A stretch of 6,982 bases of DNA from a virus. Its lineage: Duplodnaviria; Heunggongvirae; Uroviricota; Caudoviricetes. Within the stretch, counting starts at the first letter, position 1. Every line of letters begins with the position of its first letter. Position numbers and translations under genes: made by a program. Below the pieces are notes generated by a model that ran no database searches, was not told where the DNA came from, and saw nothing but the letters and a program-made list of their open reading frames with translations. The stretch is taken from the IMG/VR virus record IMGVR_UViG_2706794688_000015; one strand, given 5' to 3'. This document shows positions 1-6,982 of this stretch, piece by piece.

Positions 1-120
1 TCAATGATCGGAAGTATGCCAAATCGTGATCGATTGTGATGCCAAACTGTGATCGGAGATGGATGCCAAATCATGATCGATTCGAATGCCAAACTGCGAT
101 CGATTCAGATGCCATTTTGC
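1..120. repeat. Tandem array of ~23-bp direct repeats (approx ATGCCAAAYYGTGATCGATTNNG), 4 full units plus partial units, truncated by the window start
   Basis: ATGCC core recurs at 16, 39, 63, 86, 109 (periods 23/24/23/23). Each unit carries a GATC (6-9, 28-31, 51-54, 74-77, 98-101). The array overlaps the last ~16 codons and the stop of the minus-strand ORF ending at 71. Confidence 0.8.
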
Positions 121-662
121 ACACTGAGTACTTTTTAAGCTTTGAAGCTACTCGACCAGCGTTACTATTAGCATTGGTGACGTTGGTTTTTTCAGCTTCT
201 GTTAAGTCTGAATAGTCCAGCTTCCAAGCCTTATTACATTTAATCTGAGCATCGAGAATATCATTTCTGATAGCTGGAGCGTAACCGGATACATCGCTAA
301 TATTCATTAACTCTTTGCACGATAGCATAGGCGCGTTATTGCGTTCAGTGGTCACGTTACCTGCATTCTTCTTACTGGTCACACCACCGTCATTTGTGGT
401 AGCCGTTTTGCCAGTGGCTGCTGAAATATCAGTTTGACCTACGATTGCTTTAAAGTTAATTTCCTGAAAAGTTAGCTGGATACGAAGACCGTTAGAGATA
501 GTAACATCTTTAGAGGCTTTAAAGTTGGTAATAATGGAATCGTCAATTTTAATTCCATCTTTACAGATAACAGAAATAATCTGCTTCTGGTCACGCCAGT
601 TTTCCAGAGTGTCAATGAAGTTTTCTACTAATTGACCCTGACGAGTTAATAATAAGCTTCCT
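71..662 (-). CDS. C-terminal ~197 codons of a tail-associated protein immediately downstream of the tape measure gene (possibly distal-tail/baseplate-type); open frame with no ATG/GTG/TTG until GTG at 382
   Basis: Frame is open from 685 to the TGA at 73-71 (translation ...[43 protein letters not shown]...). It lies +1 relative to the 50-codon ORF 815..663, which has the strong RBS. The supplied ORF track only reports 71..382 (GTG start). Product guess rests on position after the tape measure gene only. Confidence 0.5.
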
Positions 663-876
<214 letters not shown>

Positions 877-906
877 TATATATGTATTTTCTCTGTTAAG
901 CGTGAG

Positions 907-959
907 CTACGTGAAAAATAATTTTTGGTGTGGGTATTAACTTTGCTTTATTCACGTAG
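907..959 (-). promoter_or_regulatory. 9-bp inverted repeat CTACGTGAA / TTCACGTAG with ~35-nt AT-rich spacer, just downstream of the tape measure stop
   Basis: Arms at 907-915 and 951-959 are exact reverse complements. Not followed by a U-run on the minus strand, so not a canonical intrinsic terminator; candidate RNA structure or protein-binding site. Confidence 0.35.
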
Positions 960-971
960 AACACCGTTAAA

Positions 972-3152
972 TCATTCTTCCTCTGGATAGCTTGAACTTA
1001 AGAGCATATCCTGCGTGAACTGGTCATTAGCTGATTGATTGAAAGTAAAGAAAGATGGTTCATCTGGTCGAACGACAACTTGACCACCAAGTGAAACTTT
1101 CACTGGCTCCTGAATACGCTTACTCAAAGCACTAATTTCATCCCTCAGACCCTGAATATCTGCACTCGTTAATGCTGAATCTTGCTTAATGTTGTTTAAC
1201 TCTGGATGATTGAATCTTGCAATATTCATTGTGGCATTGTTAAACAATTCACCCATTGAACTAAAAATTCTACTCCATCCTTCGTTAATCATATTCGGTT
1301 TATTAGGGTCACCAGAATACACGGGATTAAAGTCACTACCCACACCTACCCCAGACGGATGCATATTAGCGTTTTTGACTACTTCCTGATTCATAAAATC
1401 CAGTGCTTTCTTCAATGCATATAAACCAAGAGTGACGCCTCTGATTTGTGGAATCATTGAAGCTAATGCTAACGCTGTTTCATAACCGTCATCAGCATAA
1501 CCAATTGCAAGAGCACTACCTACACCACCAGCTACACCTTTCAGTTTTCCACCACCTTTACCAGTAGCTACCTGACCAGCCACCTGATTAGCTCTTGTAC
1601 CTAACGTTGTGATTGCTCTTGTCAGGTTCATAACCCCTGTAGTAGCACTGAATAGCGTCTTTGCAGATAACGCTATAGCAAGACCTTTGACGAAGTTGAT
1701 AAAACCATCACCGACTTCATCAAGTAGTTTTCGTTTAGTGTCATCAAGGCTGTAATAGAACTTCTTAGTCTGTAAAATCCAGCCTTCAATGGTGTTATTG
1801 AATACGCGAATATCATCTACACCAGCTTTAAGCATGTCGATAAGTCCACCGATAGCATCACCAGCGATAGAAGAACTCATCCCCATTTCACTAAGCAGGT
1901 TACTCAGGCTGGATAAGAAGCCGTTTAGCTCATCCTGTGAACCTGAGAAGATTTTCACCATCGTATCATCCCAATTGTTTGCTAACTTACCTAAAGCTGT
2001 CTGAGTGCTCTTAGTGACTTCAGCCCAGCCACCCGCTTTATCAATCATCAAGCCCATCTGTTTAGCGACTTTAGGGAGAGTATCAGCGGAAAGTACCTTC
2101 CCGTTTTTCATGGCTGCATCAAGCTCTGTAGCAGTCATACCCAATGCTTCAGCGAATAGCTTAAATGCACCAGCCATACGGTCACCTAACTGCCCACGTA
2201 ATTCCTCAGCCTGAATCTTGCCCTTGCTCGCCATCTGCTCAAATGCTCTCAAAATGCCGTTTAGCTCATCGTTAGAAAGCCCCATTAAGCGACTCATAGC
2301 CGTTGCATTACCAAATAGCTCCTGTGTCTGTTCCTGTGACATAGAACCCTGAGCACCTGCTGCAAACTTAGCGTAGCTTGATAGCCCTTCAGAGATATTA
2401 AGACCTGTCTTGTCTGCTAAATTTCGAATAAATACCTCAGCTTCAGATGCTTTATCACCAAGTACAAACTTAGCGGCTCTCTGTGCGGAATCTCGTTTAA
2501 GACCTGCATTCATAATGGCCTTGTAAGCGTTAAGAGCACCCATCACAGAGTAAAATGCACCAGATAATTTAATCGCATTGCTTGCAAGATTATTAAATGC
2601 GTCGCTTGTATTGTTAATGCTGGCGGTCTTTGTCTGTGACCTGAGTTTATTCAACGTTTCACGAAGAGATTGATTTAATTTTGCAAGTTCAGCGTTAAAC
2701 TTTTCACTTCCAATATTACCAGCCTTACCGCTTAAGCTGTAATACTGTGCTTTAAACATTTTAGCCATCAGCGGATTAATATCACCAAGCTTAGACATAT
2801 TCACGCTATGCGCTGCTGTGATTGCTCTGTTTCCGCTAATTCGTGGTTGCCTTGATTGTTTTGGAGGATTAACAGTGTCATTAAATCTGGTGGCAAACTG
2901 AAATGCTTTTGTGCTTCTTGCTCTCTGCTCAATCTTGTCAAAGGTCTTATTAAACTTCCTTTCAAGCTGCCCTAAAGAACTTGTCAGATTGCTGTCAAGT
3001 TGCTTGGTATCGACCTTAAACGCTCTATTCAAATTGCGTTCAATTCTTTGTGCTGACTGCAAAGCTGCCTTTTCAACTCTTTGCAAGCCCTTAATAACGT
3101 TTTCACTGAAACTAAGTTCAACGATAAAACTATCAACTGTGAATTTGCTCAT
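972..3152 (-). CDS. Phage tail tape measure protein (726 aa)
   Basis: Long uninterrupted ORF with RBS AGAGGTGA 7 nt before the ATG at 3152. Protein is Ala/Gly/Leu/Lys/Gln-rich, with a Gly-rich stretch (GKGGGKLKGVAGGVGSALAIGY) and a central segment (GLSSYAKFAAGAQGSMSQEQTQELFGNATAMSRLMGLSNDELNGILRAFEQMASKGKIQAEELRGQLGDRMAGAFKLF) of the kind I recognise from tape-measure N-terminal domains. Call is by recall, not search. Confidence 0.8.
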   Translation of the reverse strand: MSKFTVDSFIVELSFSENVIKGLQRVEKAALQSAQRIERNLNRAFKVDTKQLDSNLTSSLGQLERKFNKTFDKIEQRARSTKAFQFATRFNDTVNPPKQSRQPRISGNRAITAAHSVNMSKLGDINPLMAKMFKAQYYSLSGKAGNIGSEKFNAELAKLNQSLRETLNKLRSQTKTASINNTSDAFNNLASNAIKLSGAFYSVMGALNAYKAIMNAGLKRDSAQRAAKFVLGDKASEAEVFIRNLADKTGLNISEGLSSYAKFAAGAQGSMSQEQTQELFGNATAMSRLMGLSNDELNGILRAFEQMASKGKIQAEELRGQLGDRMAGAFKLFAEALGMTATELDAAMKNGKVLSADTLPKVAKQMGLMIDKAGGWAEVTKSTQTALGKLANNWDDTMVKIFSGSQDELNGFLSSLSNLLSEMGMSSSIAGDAIGGLIDMLKAGVDDIRVFNNTIEGWILQTKKFYYSLDDTKRKLLDEVGDGFINFVKGLAIALSAKTLFSATTGVMNLTRAITTLGTRANQVAGQVATGKGGGKLKGVAGGVGSALAIGYADDGYETALALASMIPQIRGVTLGLYALKKALDFMNQEVVKNANMHPSGVGVGSDFNPVYSGDPNKPNMINEGWSRIFSSMGELFNNATMNIARFNHPELNNIKQDSALTSADIQGLRDEISALSKRIQEPVKVSLGGQVVVRPDEPSFFTFNQSANDQFTQDMLLSSSYPEEE

Positions 3153-3182
3153 TCATGTTTCACCTCTTTAAGTGTTCATATA

Positions 3183-3225
3183 CGAAAAAGGGAAAGACTA
3201 CCGATATCACTCGATAATCTCTCCC
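3183..3225 (-). terminator. Possible intrinsic terminator/attenuator between the 68-aa gene and the tape measure gene
   Basis: Minus-strand RNA: GGGAGAGA (3225-3218), 20-nt loop, UCUUUCCC (3197-3190) giving an 8-bp stem with one G-U pair, followed by UUUUU (3189-3185). Loop is long and the position inside an operon is unusual, hence low confidence. Confidence 0.3.
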
Positions 3226-3250
3226 GTAGATTTTCACCCAACCAATCTTG

Positions 3251-3457
3251 TTACCTAACCAGATAATAATTACCATCTTCACCAACAATCTGACAATCAC
3301 TTGGTAATTTATCAAGACACCACTTAGCTATTTTCCTGATTCTATTCTTTTGCTTAGAGGAGGTGAATGATTTGATTCGTTTTGGTTTGTTGGGTTGTTC
3401 TTTCAATCGTTCACTAATTGCTTTAATAAGCTCATAGCGTTCTGTTAAATCAATCAT
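3251..3457 (-). CDS. Hypothetical small basic protein (68 aa)
   Basis: ATG at 3457 preceded by AAAAGGTGGTGA; Lys/Arg-rich middle (KPKRIKSFTSSKQKNRIRKIAKW). Same frame as the upstream 236-aa gene but separated by two stops (TAA, TGA). Confidence 0.55.
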   Translation of the reverse strand: MIDLTERYELIKAISERLKEQPNKPKRIKSFTSSKQKNRIRKIAKWCLDKLPSDCQIVGEDGNYYLVR

Positions 3458-3481
3458 TCACCACCACCTTTTAATTATTAA

Positions 3482-4192
3482 TTAAATAGCCTTTGCATAT
3501 TTGCTAGAAATCTTCGTAAGCTGCTCAATATCAGCCTGCATAGCAATCTTCTTAGCATCTTCATATTCTTTCACAAGCTCTTTCATAGCCTGAAGCTCTC
3601 TTGAGAGATACAACTTAACATTATCAAGTTGCTTGTTACGTGATGCCAAGATGTTCTGTCTAGCAATTTCAGCGAGTTCTTCATCGCTCTTATTAGTCAT
3701 GTAAATAAACTGACCAGCACCTCTTGATGCCTTAACCATCTTCACAATTCGATGTCCAGCAGGAAGACTACTAATCACGGCTGCGACGTTTTCTTGAAAA
3801 GTACCAAAACCATCATTATCTTCGTATTGGTAATAGACAAATGGTTTCTGTGACAATTCATCCTGAATCTCAAATTCTGACGGCTCAATAGCTGATTGCA
3901 TCAAGGTAACTTTGCTGTAAGCGTCATCTAATCTAAGGCGCTGTTCTTTCAGCAGTTGGTAATATTTCTTTTCAAGCTCAAGTAATGCTTCACTCTTGCA
4001 AATATCAGGCATCTCTTGAGGCTCAGGAGACACAAAGATGGTTGTTTTTGGTGACATCTTTAGCGATTGCTCAAGCTCAATACGCTTGTCATGCTCTTTA
4101 CGCTGAATAGTGATAGCTGGATGTTCAGTCTGTGGCGACCAGTCACTGAAGCTATCAATCACTTTGCCATTAATGTAAATATCATTTGTCAT
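3482..4192 (-). CDS. Hypothetical protein (236 aa from the RBS-supported ATG at 4192), acidic with a predicted coiled-coil C-terminus
   Basis: ORF track gives 3482..4240 from a GTG with no spacer to any SD. The internal ATG at 4192 is preceded by AGAGGAAAAGCA and starts MTNDIYINGK. No recognisable tail-tube or chaperone signature by eye. Confidence 0.6.
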   Translation of the reverse strand: MTNDIYINGKVIDSFSDWSPQTEHPAITIQRKEHDKRIELEQSLKMSPKTTIFVSPEPQEMPDICKSEALLELEKKYYQLLKEQRLRLDDAYSKVTLMQSAIEPSEFEIQDELSQKPFVYYQYEDNDGFGTFQENVAAVISSLPAGHRIVKMVKASRGAGQFIYMTNKSDEELAEIARQNILASRNKQLDNVKLYLSRELQAMKELVKEYEDAKKIAMQADIEQLTKISSKYAKAI

Positions 4193-4240
4193 TGCTTTTC
4201 CTCTTCTAAGCGGAAGTGTTTCAGTTTTTAAAAAGCACAC

Positions 4241-4590
4241 CTGACAGCCTATCTAAACTTAGAAGAGACTTAAAAGGCGGTTTGCCAAGTATGCTTTTTA
4301 AAAGCTGAATAGCCCTAGATAATTTCTTATAAAGGGCCATTCATAAGGTGAAGAAATTAAAACATCTAAAGGATTCAAAAAGGATTCAAACGAATGAACA
4401 AGAGTACTTTTCGAGATGACCTCTCAGACTAACCTGAAAGGTCATGTAGCGAAAAGCATTGCACCTTTCAGAATAACTATCATTGATGTAGAATGATTAA
4501 TAGTTTAATTCAGGAAGAGTTGCTCTTCCCTATTACCATCATCTCATGCTTAAGGTTATTTGTCAACAGCTTTTTAACAGATTGGTAACA
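4241..4590. other. ~350-bp noncoding, structured region between gene blocks: 11-bp tandem direct repeat AGGATTCAAAA (4370-4391), imperfect 12-bp-stem hairpin (4416-4445), 7-bp-stem hairpin GGAAGAG-ttg-CTCTTCC (4513-4529), TTGACA on the minus strand at 4566-4561
   Basis: No ORF with a credible RBS on either strand; repeats and inverted repeats read directly from the sequence. Confidence 0.5.
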
Positions 4591-4668
4591 TCAATTCTTA
4601 TTTACCGTATTACCTACCCAGCAACCAACAAATAACCCTAAAGTCATCCAGAGAATAACGAGTGTCAT
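4591..4668 (-). CDS. Putative 25-aa hydrophobic micropeptide (MTLVILWMTLGLFVGCWVGNTVNKN), translationally coupled to the upstream 101-aa gene
   Basis: ATG overlaps the TAA stop of the 101-aa ORF (TAATG at 4670-4666); GAGGTGA sits 5 nt upstream; stop TGA at 4593-4591. Below the ORF-track length cutoff. Confidence 0.3.
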   Translation of the reverse strand: MTLVILWMTLGLFVGCWVGNTVNKN

Positions 4669-4973
4669 TACATCACCTCGCTGTAAGGGTTTAATTCATT
4701 CTGATAGGTCAAGAATACATTCAGCTTCAATAATTGCTCAGGGCTTAAATCAAGTCGATTGCACTCTTCAATGATAAAGCGCTTATTGTATGGGTCTGTT
4801 ACTTCCAGCTTGTGAACATAGTCACCAAGTTTAATTTCGTTGATTATATGCTTGTCAATATACGTTGACGCTTCAAAACAATGCATGAAATAGATATTAA
4901 AGCCCGACCTGTTCAGGTCAATCAACCAATTCATGGTTTCTTGGTCAACCATAATTTGCATTGGGTAATTCAT
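4668..4973 (-). CDS. Hypothetical protein (101 aa)
   Basis: ATG at 4973 preceded by AGGAAGGA; a -10-like TAGAAT lies at 5002-4997 on the minus strand. Confidence 0.6.
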   Translation of the reverse strand: MNYPMQIMVDQETMNWLIDLNRSGFNIYFMHCFEASTYIDKHIINEIKLGDYVHKLEVTDPYNKRFIIEECNRLDLSPEQLLKLNVFLTYQNELNPYSEVM

Positions 4974-5119
4974 TTTTAAAATCCTTCCTGTATCGCATTC
5001 TAAGACGTTTTAACCCCTTTTTTAGACCACTTAAGGCGATTCCCTAAGTTACCCTGATTAGGGGCTTAAAAACGTTTCTGGTGCGTCTGGTAAAGCCTGA
5101 GAGATATGTTTTGCTGTTT

Positions 5120-5335
5120 TTAGCTCAAGTCTGAGACTAATAGCCCCATCTGGTGACCGTAGTCTTTTAACCAGCTTTGCTTAACCGGAGTCTTCAGAGA
5201 ATAGTTAGGGGCTGACAAGTGAAGATAGATATCATCTTTGCCGTGGATACTTCCCCATCCTTCGTATAACTCAAGCAAGTTTTCAAAATAACGAAATGCT
5301 TTATTAGTCTGAAGTTGTACTGTGATAGTTTTCAT
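5120..5335 (-). CDS. Hypothetical small protein (71 aa, MKTITVQLQTNKAF...), third gene of a coupled cassette
   Basis: ATG at 5335 overlaps the TGA stop of the upstream gene (TGATG), with GGGGTG upstream. The ORF track's longer start at 5347 lacks an SD. Confidence 0.55.
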   Translation of the reverse strand: MKTITVQLQTNKAFRYFENLLELYEGWGSIHGKDDIYLHLSAPNYSLKTPVKQSWLKDYGHQMGLLVSDLS

Positions 5336-5556
5336 CAAGCACCCCATTCAGAAATAAGCTTAATTCCCTGCTCAAGCTGTTCAGGGTCGTTATAGTCGAG
5401 TATTACCAGTGGCTTTAATTCGTGTTTAAGCTGGTGGATTTGAGAGGGTTTTAATCGTTTGTTTGCTTTGAGGGTCACATCTTCAAATTCAGCATCTGCT
5501 AAATTCTGTCTGATTAGGTGGCGGCCAAGTGTGGAATATTGGAACCTATAACACAT
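5335..5556 (-). CDS. Hypothetical small protein (73 aa), second gene of the coupled cassette
   Basis: ATG at 5556 overlaps the TAA stop of the upstream gene (TAATG) and is preceded by GGAGG at 5-nt spacing. Confidence 0.6.
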   Translation of the reverse strand: MCYRFQYSTLGRHLIRQNLADAEFEDVTLKANKRLKPSQIHQLKHELKPLVILDYNDPEQLEQGIKLISEWGA

Positions 5557-5846
5557 TAAACCTCCAATCTATCCGCCAGTTGATGGACCTTAGCGCTTAA
5601 CACCTGAATCATTGAGCAACCTGCTACTGCGGACTGTGCTTTGAGTAGTTCCAGTTGGCCCGTTGTGATTCTGATGGCCTTAGAACCCTCTGCGACGCCC
5701 TTAACGTTATCGAAAGGGCTAAGGTTTACCGACTCTTTTAAAATCTCCCCAACAAGCGCTGTGTGCTTCATATCGGGATATTTGGCTTTGATTGCTGCCA
5801 GTCGTTCAAATGCCTCTGGCAAAAGGCGCGTAACTGTGTGAGTCAT
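5556..5846 (-). CDS. Putative DNA-binding protein (96 aa) with two ribbon-helix-helix-like segments; first gene of the coupled cassette
   Basis: ATG at 5846 preceded by AAGGAGA (the track's start at 5876 has no SD). N-terminal TVTRLLPEAFERLAAIKAKYPDMKHTALVGEILKE and C-terminal AIRITTGQLELLKAQSAVAGCSMIQVLSAKV both fit a strand-helix-helix pattern as in Arc/CopG-type repressors. Pattern-based inference only. Confidence 0.55.
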   Translation of the reverse strand: MTHTVTRLLPEAFERLAAIKAKYPDMKHTALVGEILKESVNLSPFDNVKGVAEGSKAIRITTGQLELLKAQSAVAGCSMIQVLSAKVHQLADRLEV

Positions 5847-5904
5847 TGTAAAAATCTCCTTAAATCTCTTACTCATACTACAATCTTAACATCTATTTAA
5901 CATA

Positions 5905-5933
5905 TTGTCAGTACCTCATTTACATGATACTAT
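5905..5933 (+). promoter_or_regulatory. Sigma70-like promoter: -35 TTGTCA (5905-5910), 17-bp spacer, -10 TACTAT (5928-5933), driving the plus-strand small gene and overlapping the upstream region of the divergent minus-strand cassette
   Basis: Hexamers and spacing read directly; ~50 nt upstream of the ATG at 5984. ATACTA also recurs at 5875-5880 and 5927-5932. Confidence 0.45.
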
Positions 5934-5983
5934 GGTTGTAGGGGCTGATACAGGTGCTGTTTCCTTTCACAAAAGGAAAATTA

Positions 5984-6160
5984 ATGCATGATTTTTTCAC
6001 AGCAATTATTGAATCTCATCGTTTTAGCTCGTTGGGCTTTGCGGTATTTATTGTGCTATTGGTGTTTTGCGTTATGAATCGAGTCATTACAAAAAAGACA
6101 AAGCTTACAATTCGACTTAAACTTCTTCGTGTTGAGATAGAGATTTCAGTAAATAAATAG
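5984..6160 (+). CDS. Small single-pass membrane protein (58 aa, MHDFFTAIIESHRFSSLGFAVFIVLLVFCVMNRVITKKTKLTIRLKLLRVEIEISVNK), the only plus-strand gene
   Basis: ATG at 5984 preceded by AAAGGAAAA; one hydrophobic segment (LGFAVFIVLLVFCVM) followed by a Lys/Arg-rich tail; own promoter; convergent with the 98-aa gene (9-bp gap). Confidence 0.5.
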   Translation: MHDFFTAIIESHRFSSLGFAVFIVLLVFCVMNRVITKKTKLTIRLKLLRVEIEISVNK

Positions 6161-6169
6161 CTGGTGGCC

Positions 6170-6466
6170 TTACCGGCACTTTCCCTTGATAATATTGGTG
6201 GCCCTCAGATTACCGGGGTCACCGTCTTTTAATCGTAGCTGGTGGACTGAATCCCATAAATCGTAATGATACAGCACCGCAAACTTCAAAGCGTCAATCT
6301 TTAAATCTGTCACATCATCGACGAAATAATAATCCCTCCCTTCTTTCTTCGGTCGAATCCGGTAAACTTCCCCGTGAGTATCTTTCATCAAGTAACCTTC
6401 ACGAGAAATGCTGTAACGTCTGAGTAAATAGTCACGGTATTTTCTCTCGCCATTATAAGTTTTCAT
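6170..6466 (-). CDS. Hypothetical protein (98 aa), translationally coupled to the upstream acidic protein
   Basis: ATG at 6466 overlaps the TAA stop of the upstream ORF (TAATG) and is preceded by GGAGGA. Confidence 0.6.
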   Translation of the reverse strand: MKTYNGERKYRDYLLRRYSISREGYLMKDTHGEVYRIRPKKEGRDYYFVDDVTDLKIDALKFAVLYHYDLWDSVHQLRLKDGDPGNLRATNIIKGKCR

Positions 6467-6982
6467 TAAAACATTCCTCCACCATAAACACGTCTGACTT
6501 TAACTTTTTCTTTCTTTGGCTCGGTGTGAGTTTTCTTTTTTGGTGTAAAAGTAAAATCATCGTCACTATCATCAAAGTCATCGAGGTCACTAACCTTGTT
6601 CTTTAGCTTCGCATTTCTGAATCTTTCTTTAATTTCTGCTTTACGCTGTTCACGTTTCAATTCCTTTTCAGGGTCTTCTTCATCATCAAGGTCAACATCC
6701 GGTAATTCATCATCAGTGGCGGGGCACTGTGTGTTTTTATGGTCACTACTAGCAATCACATCAGAGATTTTATCTTCCTTTTTAACGACCTCTTTAGCAG
6801 CTTCACTATCAAGGTCATCTAAGTCAGATGTTTTAACAGTCTCTTTAATAGCCTCTTCAATACCAAGAGAATCACATTCATGTGAATCACAGAGCGAAGC
6901 TCCCTTCTTAAAATATTCTTCTTCAAAGTCATCTTCTTTATTGTTATTAATAAGTTCTTTCTTGTTATTACTGTTATTATAC
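6466..6982 (-). CDS. Acidic, low-complexity (Asp/Glu/Asn/Lys-rich) protein, 5'-partial: frame open to the window edge (at least 171 codons), basic C-terminal tail
   Basis: No stop between the window end and the TAA at 6468-6466 in this frame. The track's 97-aa version starts at an internal GTG (6759) with a poorly spaced SD. Contains DDFEEEY, DLDDLDSE, DVDLDDEEDPE, DLDDFDDSDDD and a C-terminal KKKTHTEPKKEKVKVRRV. Confidence 0.5.
   Translation of the reverse strand, partial: YNNSNNKKELINNNKEDDFEEEYFKKGASLCDSHECDSLGIEEAIKETVKTSDLDDLDSEAAKEVVKKEDKISDVIASSDHKNTQCPATDDELPDVDLDDEEDPEKELKREQRKAEIKERFRNAKLKNKVSDLDDFDDSDDDFTFTPKKKTHTEPKKEKVKVRRVYGGGMF

Follow-up and report, generated by a model that had tools for sequence, protein, structure and literature searches.

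A GATC-containing tandem repeat array next to a phage-derived tail gene is the left end of an insertion sequence of the IS21 family

The stretch of DNA analyzed here, which we refer to as the window, comprises 6,982 nucleotides of a viral record (IMG/VR record IMGVR_UViG_2706794688_000015, Caudoviricetes) and opens with a run of short direct repeats that overlaps the end of a tail gene. We conclude, at a probability of about 96%, that window positions 1–121 are the left terminal inverted repeat of an insertion sequence (IS) of the IS21 family, which has transposed into a phage-derived island six codons before the stop codon of a Dit-like gene. The repeats are accordingly a mobile element that is already known, lying at its insertion junction, and they form no part of the phage-like element beside them. 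An earlier interpretation, made from the sequence only, had assigned the array to the phage-like element itself; what stands of it is the description of a non-coding array of regularly spaced, predicted protein-binding sites, but the attribution to the phage-like element does not.

The array consists of five contiguous head-to-tail units of 22–24 bp, every one of which contains a GATC, and on the plus strand all five can be written as TGATCG-N5-7-ATGCCAAA-N3. The pattern GATCG-N5-8-ATGCCA is found five times, starting at positions 6, 28, 51, 75, and 98, against an expectation of 0.01 derived from 200 dinucleotide-preserving shuffles. Tandem Repeats Finder reports an array at 5–114 with a period of 23, 4.3 copies, and 70–73% matches, together with a higher-scoring call, namely a 47-bp super-period (2.1 copies, 84% matches, score 136), which arises because units containing the near-palindromic GATCGAT alternate with units containing GATCGGA. 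The sequence-only reading had described contiguous GATC repeats over positions 1–120, and in this it was right; its further statement that a GATCGAT core is present in every unit holds for three of the five (those at 28, 75, and 98), but not for the remaining two, which read GATCGGA. It was equally correct in regarding the array as unlike CRISPR, a possibility that is ruled out by the lack of unique spacers between the repeats.

The identity of the array emerges from its distribution. A blastn search with window 1–130 against complete Escherichia coli genomes matched 2,817 records belonging to 2,622 of the 5,426 genomes, chromosomes as well as plasmids, with a median of one place per genome and a maximum of 35. 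The outcome that the sequence-only reading had itself named as its refutation, a common dispersed repeat with no tie to the element, is what this search shows. The best E. coli matches are 97–99% identical and end at query positions 124–130. In the three copies that were inspected at this stage, the matched sequence adjoins istA (1,536 nt) and istB (756 nt), and the genes interrupted by them are those for a haemagglutinin and an IS66 transposase, and fimE. The IstA protein (511 aa) scores 283.6 bits on the NCBIfam model NF033546, "IS21 family transposase" (cut-off 160), and carries the Pfam domains rve and Mu-transpos_C_2, while IstB (251 aa) reaches 257.8 bits against NF038214 (cut-off 200) and 205.7 bits against Pfam IstB_IS21 (PF01695). 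The NCBI annotation names the former "IS21 family transposase" and the latter "IS21-like element ISSso4 family helper ATPase". It is solely from this IstB label that we take the name ISSso4-like for the element, and the literature mentioning ISSso4 gives neither an element length nor an end sequence.

The complete element in E. coli is 2,639 bp long and is bounded by TGC...GCA tips, reading TGCAAAATGGCATC... inward from the left, istA-side tip and TGCGTATTCCGCTC... from the right one. Its left end comprises five full units and a half unit, with GATC at IS positions 21, 44, 68, 91, and 113 (a spacing of 23, 24, 23, and 22) and (A/T)TGGCAT at IS positions 7, 30, 53, 77, 100, and 122, whereas the right end comprises three units; istA starts 232 bp inside the left tip. 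Taken together, the E. coli copies display the set of features by which the IS21 family is recognized: istA and istB genes, imperfect terminal inverted repeats with TG...CA tips, direct repeats of approximately 23 bp that are more numerous on the left than on the right, a short target duplication, and presence in multiple copies in unrelated contexts, with an empty target allele available for comparison. Three of the E. coli copies are flanked by 6-bp duplications (CCCTGA, ACTGAG, CCTGAA) and one by a 5-bp duplication (GGGAG).

When the window is laid onto this element, window base 1 corresponds to IS position 121 and window base 121 is the IS tip, which reads ...TTTTGCA on the plus strand and TGCAAAATGG... 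inward on the minus strand. All five units lie on the minus strand. The terminal unit, L1 (95–121), consists of the tip TGCA, the box ATGGCAT at 109–115, and the box CGATCG at 97–102, with its GATC at 98–101. It is followed inward by L2 (72–94; TTTGGCAT-TCGAAT-CGATCA, GATC at 75–78), L3 (48–71; TTTGGCAT-CCATCTC-CGATCA, GATC at 51–54), L4 (25–47; TTTGGCAT-CACAAT-CGATCA, GATC at 28–31), and L5 (1–24; TTTGGCAT-ACTTC-CGATCA, GATC at 6–9). Each unit is built of two conserved boxes, TTGGCAT and CGATCA, which lie about one helical turn from each other with a variable spacer of 5–7 bp in between. Over its 121 bases the window copy is identical to the E. coli copies at 120, shares their tip, their five units, and the spacing of the units, and differs from these copies of the ISSso4-like element, an IS of E. 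coli and Shigella, in its insertion site and in a single base, T15 in place of C, within L5. The earlier suspicion that the array reaches the window start and may go on beyond it is confirmed by the E. coli copies, which show just one more half unit, a TTGGCAT without GATC; the array barely extends past the window edge, because the window copy already holds L1–L5 and lacks the half unit alone.

The boundary between the IS and its host is equally sharp. In an alignment of the window with three E. coli contexts, the sequences are identical up to base 121 (...GATGCCATTTTGCA) and unrelated beyond it. E. coli OkiPb01716 has an uninterrupted allele of the host gene, whose match to the window begins at base 122 (CACTGAGTAC...); left of the junction this allele continues with sequence of its own that codes for the native C-terminus ...KKYSVNPNKRY*. 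At the empty site the sequence is ...GGATTCACTGAGTAC..., and it is because this allele matches the window from base 122 that we place the IS tip at base 121. The first six host bases next to the tip, CACTGA (122–127), represent the putative target-site duplication, one junction of which is visible in the window. In the IS21 family such duplications measure 4–8 bp. As a side observation, four of the five target sequences contain CTGA (CACTGA, CCCTGA, ACTGAG, and CCTGAA, the fifth being GGGAG), and the ACTGAGTAC next to the tip is common to the window and plasmid pCRST030_1; with no more than five sites, we do not claim that the element prefers CTGA as a target. Searches for the exact junction and flank patterns in viral, metagenome, and genome contig collections returned no match, and in a megablast of window 1–420 against the complete E. 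coli genomes none proved to have the IS at this site, the sole full-length match (O177:H21) carrying the same IS about 270 bp further away.

The interrupted gene is a Dit-like tail/baseplate gene on the minus strand (71–815), recognized from translations, from intact homologues, and from the Pfam match of an intact E. coli homologue to PF21821 Dit_like (E=2.9e-20). Bases 122–815 are native, while bases 71–121 supply 16 IS-encoded codons and a stop in place of the native NPNKRY*, so that the window protein runs ...KKYSV and then continues for 16 residues encoded by the IS; the minus-strand open reading frame (ORF) listed as 71–382 correspondingly ends at base 71, inside the array. The overlap between the repeats and the last codons of a tail gene, which had appeared unusual to the sequence-only reading, is therefore real, since the IS replaced the last six codons with 16 of its own, but it is read-through at an insertion junction rather than a designed arrangement. 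Even without the IS the gene would be a pseudogene, because a 74-nt deletion, placed by alignment at 667|668, shifts its frame and removes about 25 codons that are present in the E. coli relatives and in phage garuso.

The read-through raises the question of whether the array might itself be a coding low-complexity repeat, whether as the C-terminal part of the tail gene or as the N-terminal part of the gene that follows. Such a reading could appeal to the 16 codons for which the minus-strand ORF enters the array, and to an ATG overlapping the stop (ATGA, 73–76), which opens a frame that runs out of the window. It founders, however, on the periods of 22–24 and 47 bp, which are not multiples of three, so that successive units would be read in different frames, on the native protein, which ends in NPNKRY* without any array, and on the inspected IS copies, in which the same DNA is non-coding and lies upstream of istA. 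We consider its probability negligible, and retain the identification of the array as a non-coding IS end.

A less easily dismissed alternative is that the array is a solo or truncated IS end, namely a remnant of deletion or recombination or a MITE-like fragment, instead of part of a complete and active IS. With 121 bp of the IS visible, istA, istB, the right end, and the second duplication would all lie outside the window; the host gene, with its 74-nt deletion, is already decaying, which makes further rearrangement plausible; many of the E. coli matches are partial, with 625 of the 2,817 records covering at least 80% of the 130-nt query; and a partial transposase remnant bearing the same repeats is found in Stx2 prophages. 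Against this, all four of the inspected E. coli copies that have a complete end (E. coli MS 200-1, Ecol_517, plasmid pCRST030_1, and O177:H21) extend over the full 2,639 bp and have both istA and istB intact, and the one-base distance between the window copy and these elements suggests a recent insertion. That the window starts abruptly inside a multicopy IS is, moreover, what is expected of a short-read assembly break, and an Erwinia contig (2,553 bp, with a coverage of 1081 given in its record name) likewise begins inside the array. On balance, a solo end seems to us improbable. Were the window copy complete, istA would begin about 110 bp to the left of base 1 and would be followed in the same direction by istB, the right end TGCGTATTCC..., a second CACTGA, and then ...ATCCGAACAAG, the remainder of the 3' end of the Dit-like gene.

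The distribution of GATC sets the array apart from the host element as well. The window contains no GATC besides the five of the array, and outside the array 6,861 bp have 0 where approximately 24–26 would be expected; because GATC occurs there and nowhere else in the window, bases 1–121 are marked as foreign to the host element. GATC is also absent from the related E. coli islands (about 7.2 kb each) and from 12.8 kb of the Felix O1-like phage garuso (the loci surveyed besides the window being L006 3980–11144, L007 7373–14690, and L001), and Felix O1-like phages have been described in the literature as lacking GATC (PMC5477317, PMC4690856). Separately, we note that CTAG is low in window 122–6982, with four occurrences against 15 expected.

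These data bear directly on the reading proposed earlier, according to which the repeats are replication-origin iterons or partition or packaging sites of the phage-like element. The resemblance is genuine, in that contiguous GATC repeats of about 23 bp do recall some plasmid and phage origins, and iterons share with the array both contiguous direct repeats of about 20 bp and the cooperative protein binding that is predicted for it. Iterons, however, are replicon-specific and sit beside a rep gene, whereas the array studied here is multicopy, occurs in thousands of unrelated E. coli contexts, lies beside istA and istB wherever it was inspected, and is missing from uninterrupted alleles of the same element, the rest of which is without any GATC. 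Since the array is absent at the empty site, and since the repeat is multicopy and dispersed, we regard the iteron, partition, and packaging readings as excluded, leaving them a probability close to nil. A search of a phage database gave no match to the array among Felix O1-like phages, the only matches being the IS remnant of Stx2 prophages mentioned above and two short unannotated fragments. The array is, in our interpretation, the property of the IS.

What the units of the left end do can be approached through other members of the family. The terminal inverted repeats of IS21-family elements are composed of direct repeats (L1–L2 and R1–R2) that are 23 bp apart, and integration needs two complete repeats per end; each repeat presents two conserved boxes with about one DNA turn of variable sequence between them, which are contacted in the major groove by HTH-1 and HTH-2 of IstA; an IstA tetramer pairs both ends, the 3' CA of the tip is the reactive group, and the AAA+ ATPase IstB prepares the target (PMC10122671; PMC11208146). 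Because the units of the window share this logic, one unit can be equated with one predicted IstA site. Both the part played by the inner units and the binding of IstA to the two boxes are inferred, the latter from the biochemistry and cryo-EM of IS5376, an element whose repeat sequence is unrelated.

On this model, each 22–24-bp unit would be one binding site for the IstA transposase, and an IstA tetramer would bring the two outermost left-end units together with their outermost counterparts on the right. The 3'-terminal CA at window 120–121 of the plus strand, which is the cleavage and strand-transfer end to be expected after IS5376 (PMC10122671), would then be cleaved and joined to the target held by IstB, giving rise to the duplication of 5–6 bp. 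The outer two units would constitute the catalytic set, and L3–L5 together with the half unit would be additional to it, lying as they do between the tip and the istA start. Their most likely roles would be the cooperative loading of IstA, discrimination between the left and right ends, or autorepression of istA. A promoter and terminator scan from the IS tip to istA found none, with no sigma-70-like promoter, and because no promoter-like site was found in this interval we keep the autoregulation of istA as an inference.

The conservation of the boxes among relatives accords with the anatomy described above. IstA relatives with 79–92% amino acid identity are found in Serratia, Klebsiella, Enterobacter, Buttiauxella, and Rahnella, with three to six left-end units, counted in the 300 bp upstream of istA (loci L009–L019): three in Buttiauxella, four in Enterobacter hormaechei, five in E. 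coli and Serratia marcescens, and six in Klebsiella indica and Serratia fonticola. Across 23 distinct internal units from six genera, E. coli included, TTGGCA(T) and CGATCA are near-invariant and the spacer of 5–7 bp varies freely. Units thus appear to be gained and lost among relatives while both boxes stay conserved.

Set beside the archetypes of the family, IS21 and IS5376, the present element has the same direct repeats spaced 23 bp apart, the same layout of two boxes about one turn apart, the same terminal CA, and the same asymmetry between its ends (PMC10122671; PMC11208146); it departs from the archetypal "at least two" units in having five to six on the left and three on the right, and from IS5376 in the sequence of its boxes, in the presence of GATC in one of them, and in a duplication of 5–6 bp as opposed to 5 bp. 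ISEc12, another IS21-family element of E. coli (L006 2400–2600), also has an istA-istB pair and shows four GATCs exactly 23 bp apart at its left end, and its TGCGTATT tip is the tip found at the right end of the ISSso4-like element, but its repeat is a different one (...GGAGATC...AATAAC...) and is accompanied by one inverted unit. Further afield, the ends of phage Mu and Tn7 resemble the array in carrying multiple transposase-binding repeats in an asymmetric layout and in being served by a DDE transposase and an AAA+ target-selecting ATPase (PMC10122671), although these belong to other families and differ in repeat length and arrangement.

The island into which the IS has transposed merits a description of its own. 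All of the substantial ORFs of the window are on the minus strand, and among them is a tape measure protein ORF (972–3152; PHROG 4036, E=4e-93; Pfam TMP_3). Relatives that are about 94% identical over 3 kb, much closer than Felix O1-like phages, are chromosomal, being present in 452 of the 5,426 complete E. coli genomes. Window 356–791, the central part of the Dit-like gene, has 92–93% DNA identity to some 200 virulent Felix O1-like phages, whereas its flanks within the same gene, as well as the tape measure gene, are below the range of megablast or near 88%, and the window outside 356–791 is altogether much more distant from these phages; such a sharp mosaic boundary suggests that virulent phages and the island in the chromosome have exchanged DNA recently. 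In O177:H21 the island (L008, NZ_CP016546.1 ~385,200–399,550) is situated between ymdF and wrbA and measures about 14 kb with the IS and about 12 kb without it. It encodes a large serine recombinase, a DNA N6-adenine methyltransferase, an HNH endonuclease, and several small unknown genes, and its recognizable virion genes are two only, those for the tape measure and Dit-like proteins. The island may represent a prophage remnant, or else a satellite of Felix O1-like phages; in a literature search for wrbA-located satellites that carry a tape measure gene, judged by title and abstract, no paper on such an island turned up.

Two further observations on the island can be recorded here. Its recombinase-proximal end has received three independent IS21-family insertions (L006 1–2600; L007 4483–7121; window 1–121), namely the ISSso4-like element at the 3' end of the Dit-like gene in the window, the same IS at its offset position in O177:H21, and ISEc12 in the recombinase gene of OkiPb01716, and this end of the island may be a local insertion hot spot. 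The other is an inverted repeat at window 4220–4309, with 27-nt arms that are 85% complementary and 36 nt between them, centered on TTTTTAAAAAGC, which overlaps the start of a 252-aa ORF on the minus strand (3482–4240); this ORF has no Pfam or PHROG match, and a homologue of it is labeled "transposase" in one E. coli genome.

The regular presence of GATC within the units invites a more tentative suggestion, and it is here that a single element of the sequence-only reading, its mention of methylation-sensitive switches, lives on as a hypothesis. GATC lies inside one of the two conserved boxes, CGATCA, of every unit, both in the E. coli IS and in its relatives across the six genera, and each ISEc12 repeat contains one GATC too. 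In N6-methyladenine the methyl group projects into the major groove, the side from which IstA of IS5376 reads its boxes, and effects of Dam methylation are known for IS10, IS50, and IS903. In these three elements, as is predicted here, GATC falls inside a sequence recognized by the transposase; they have one or two such sites and an effect that is experimental, whereas the ISSso4-like element has one GATC per unit, five on the left and three on the right. It is conceivable, if rather less probable than otherwise, that GATC methylation could gate the binding of IstA and in this way tie transposition, or the expression of istA, to the passage of the replication fork. A full-text search of the literature found no description of Dam control in the IS21 family, the match it returned, judged by title, concerning metagenomic methylation binning.

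In practical terms, these findings mean that the repeats are to be masked as an IS end and not pursued as a phage origin, partition site, or packaging site. Of possible interest in its own right is the GATC-free island of about 12 kb next to wrbA, whose virion genes have close relatives in virulent Felix O1-like phages. The link between GATC methylation and IstA, if true, would offer a cheap and testable hypothesis on the control of IS21-family transposition in enterobacteria.
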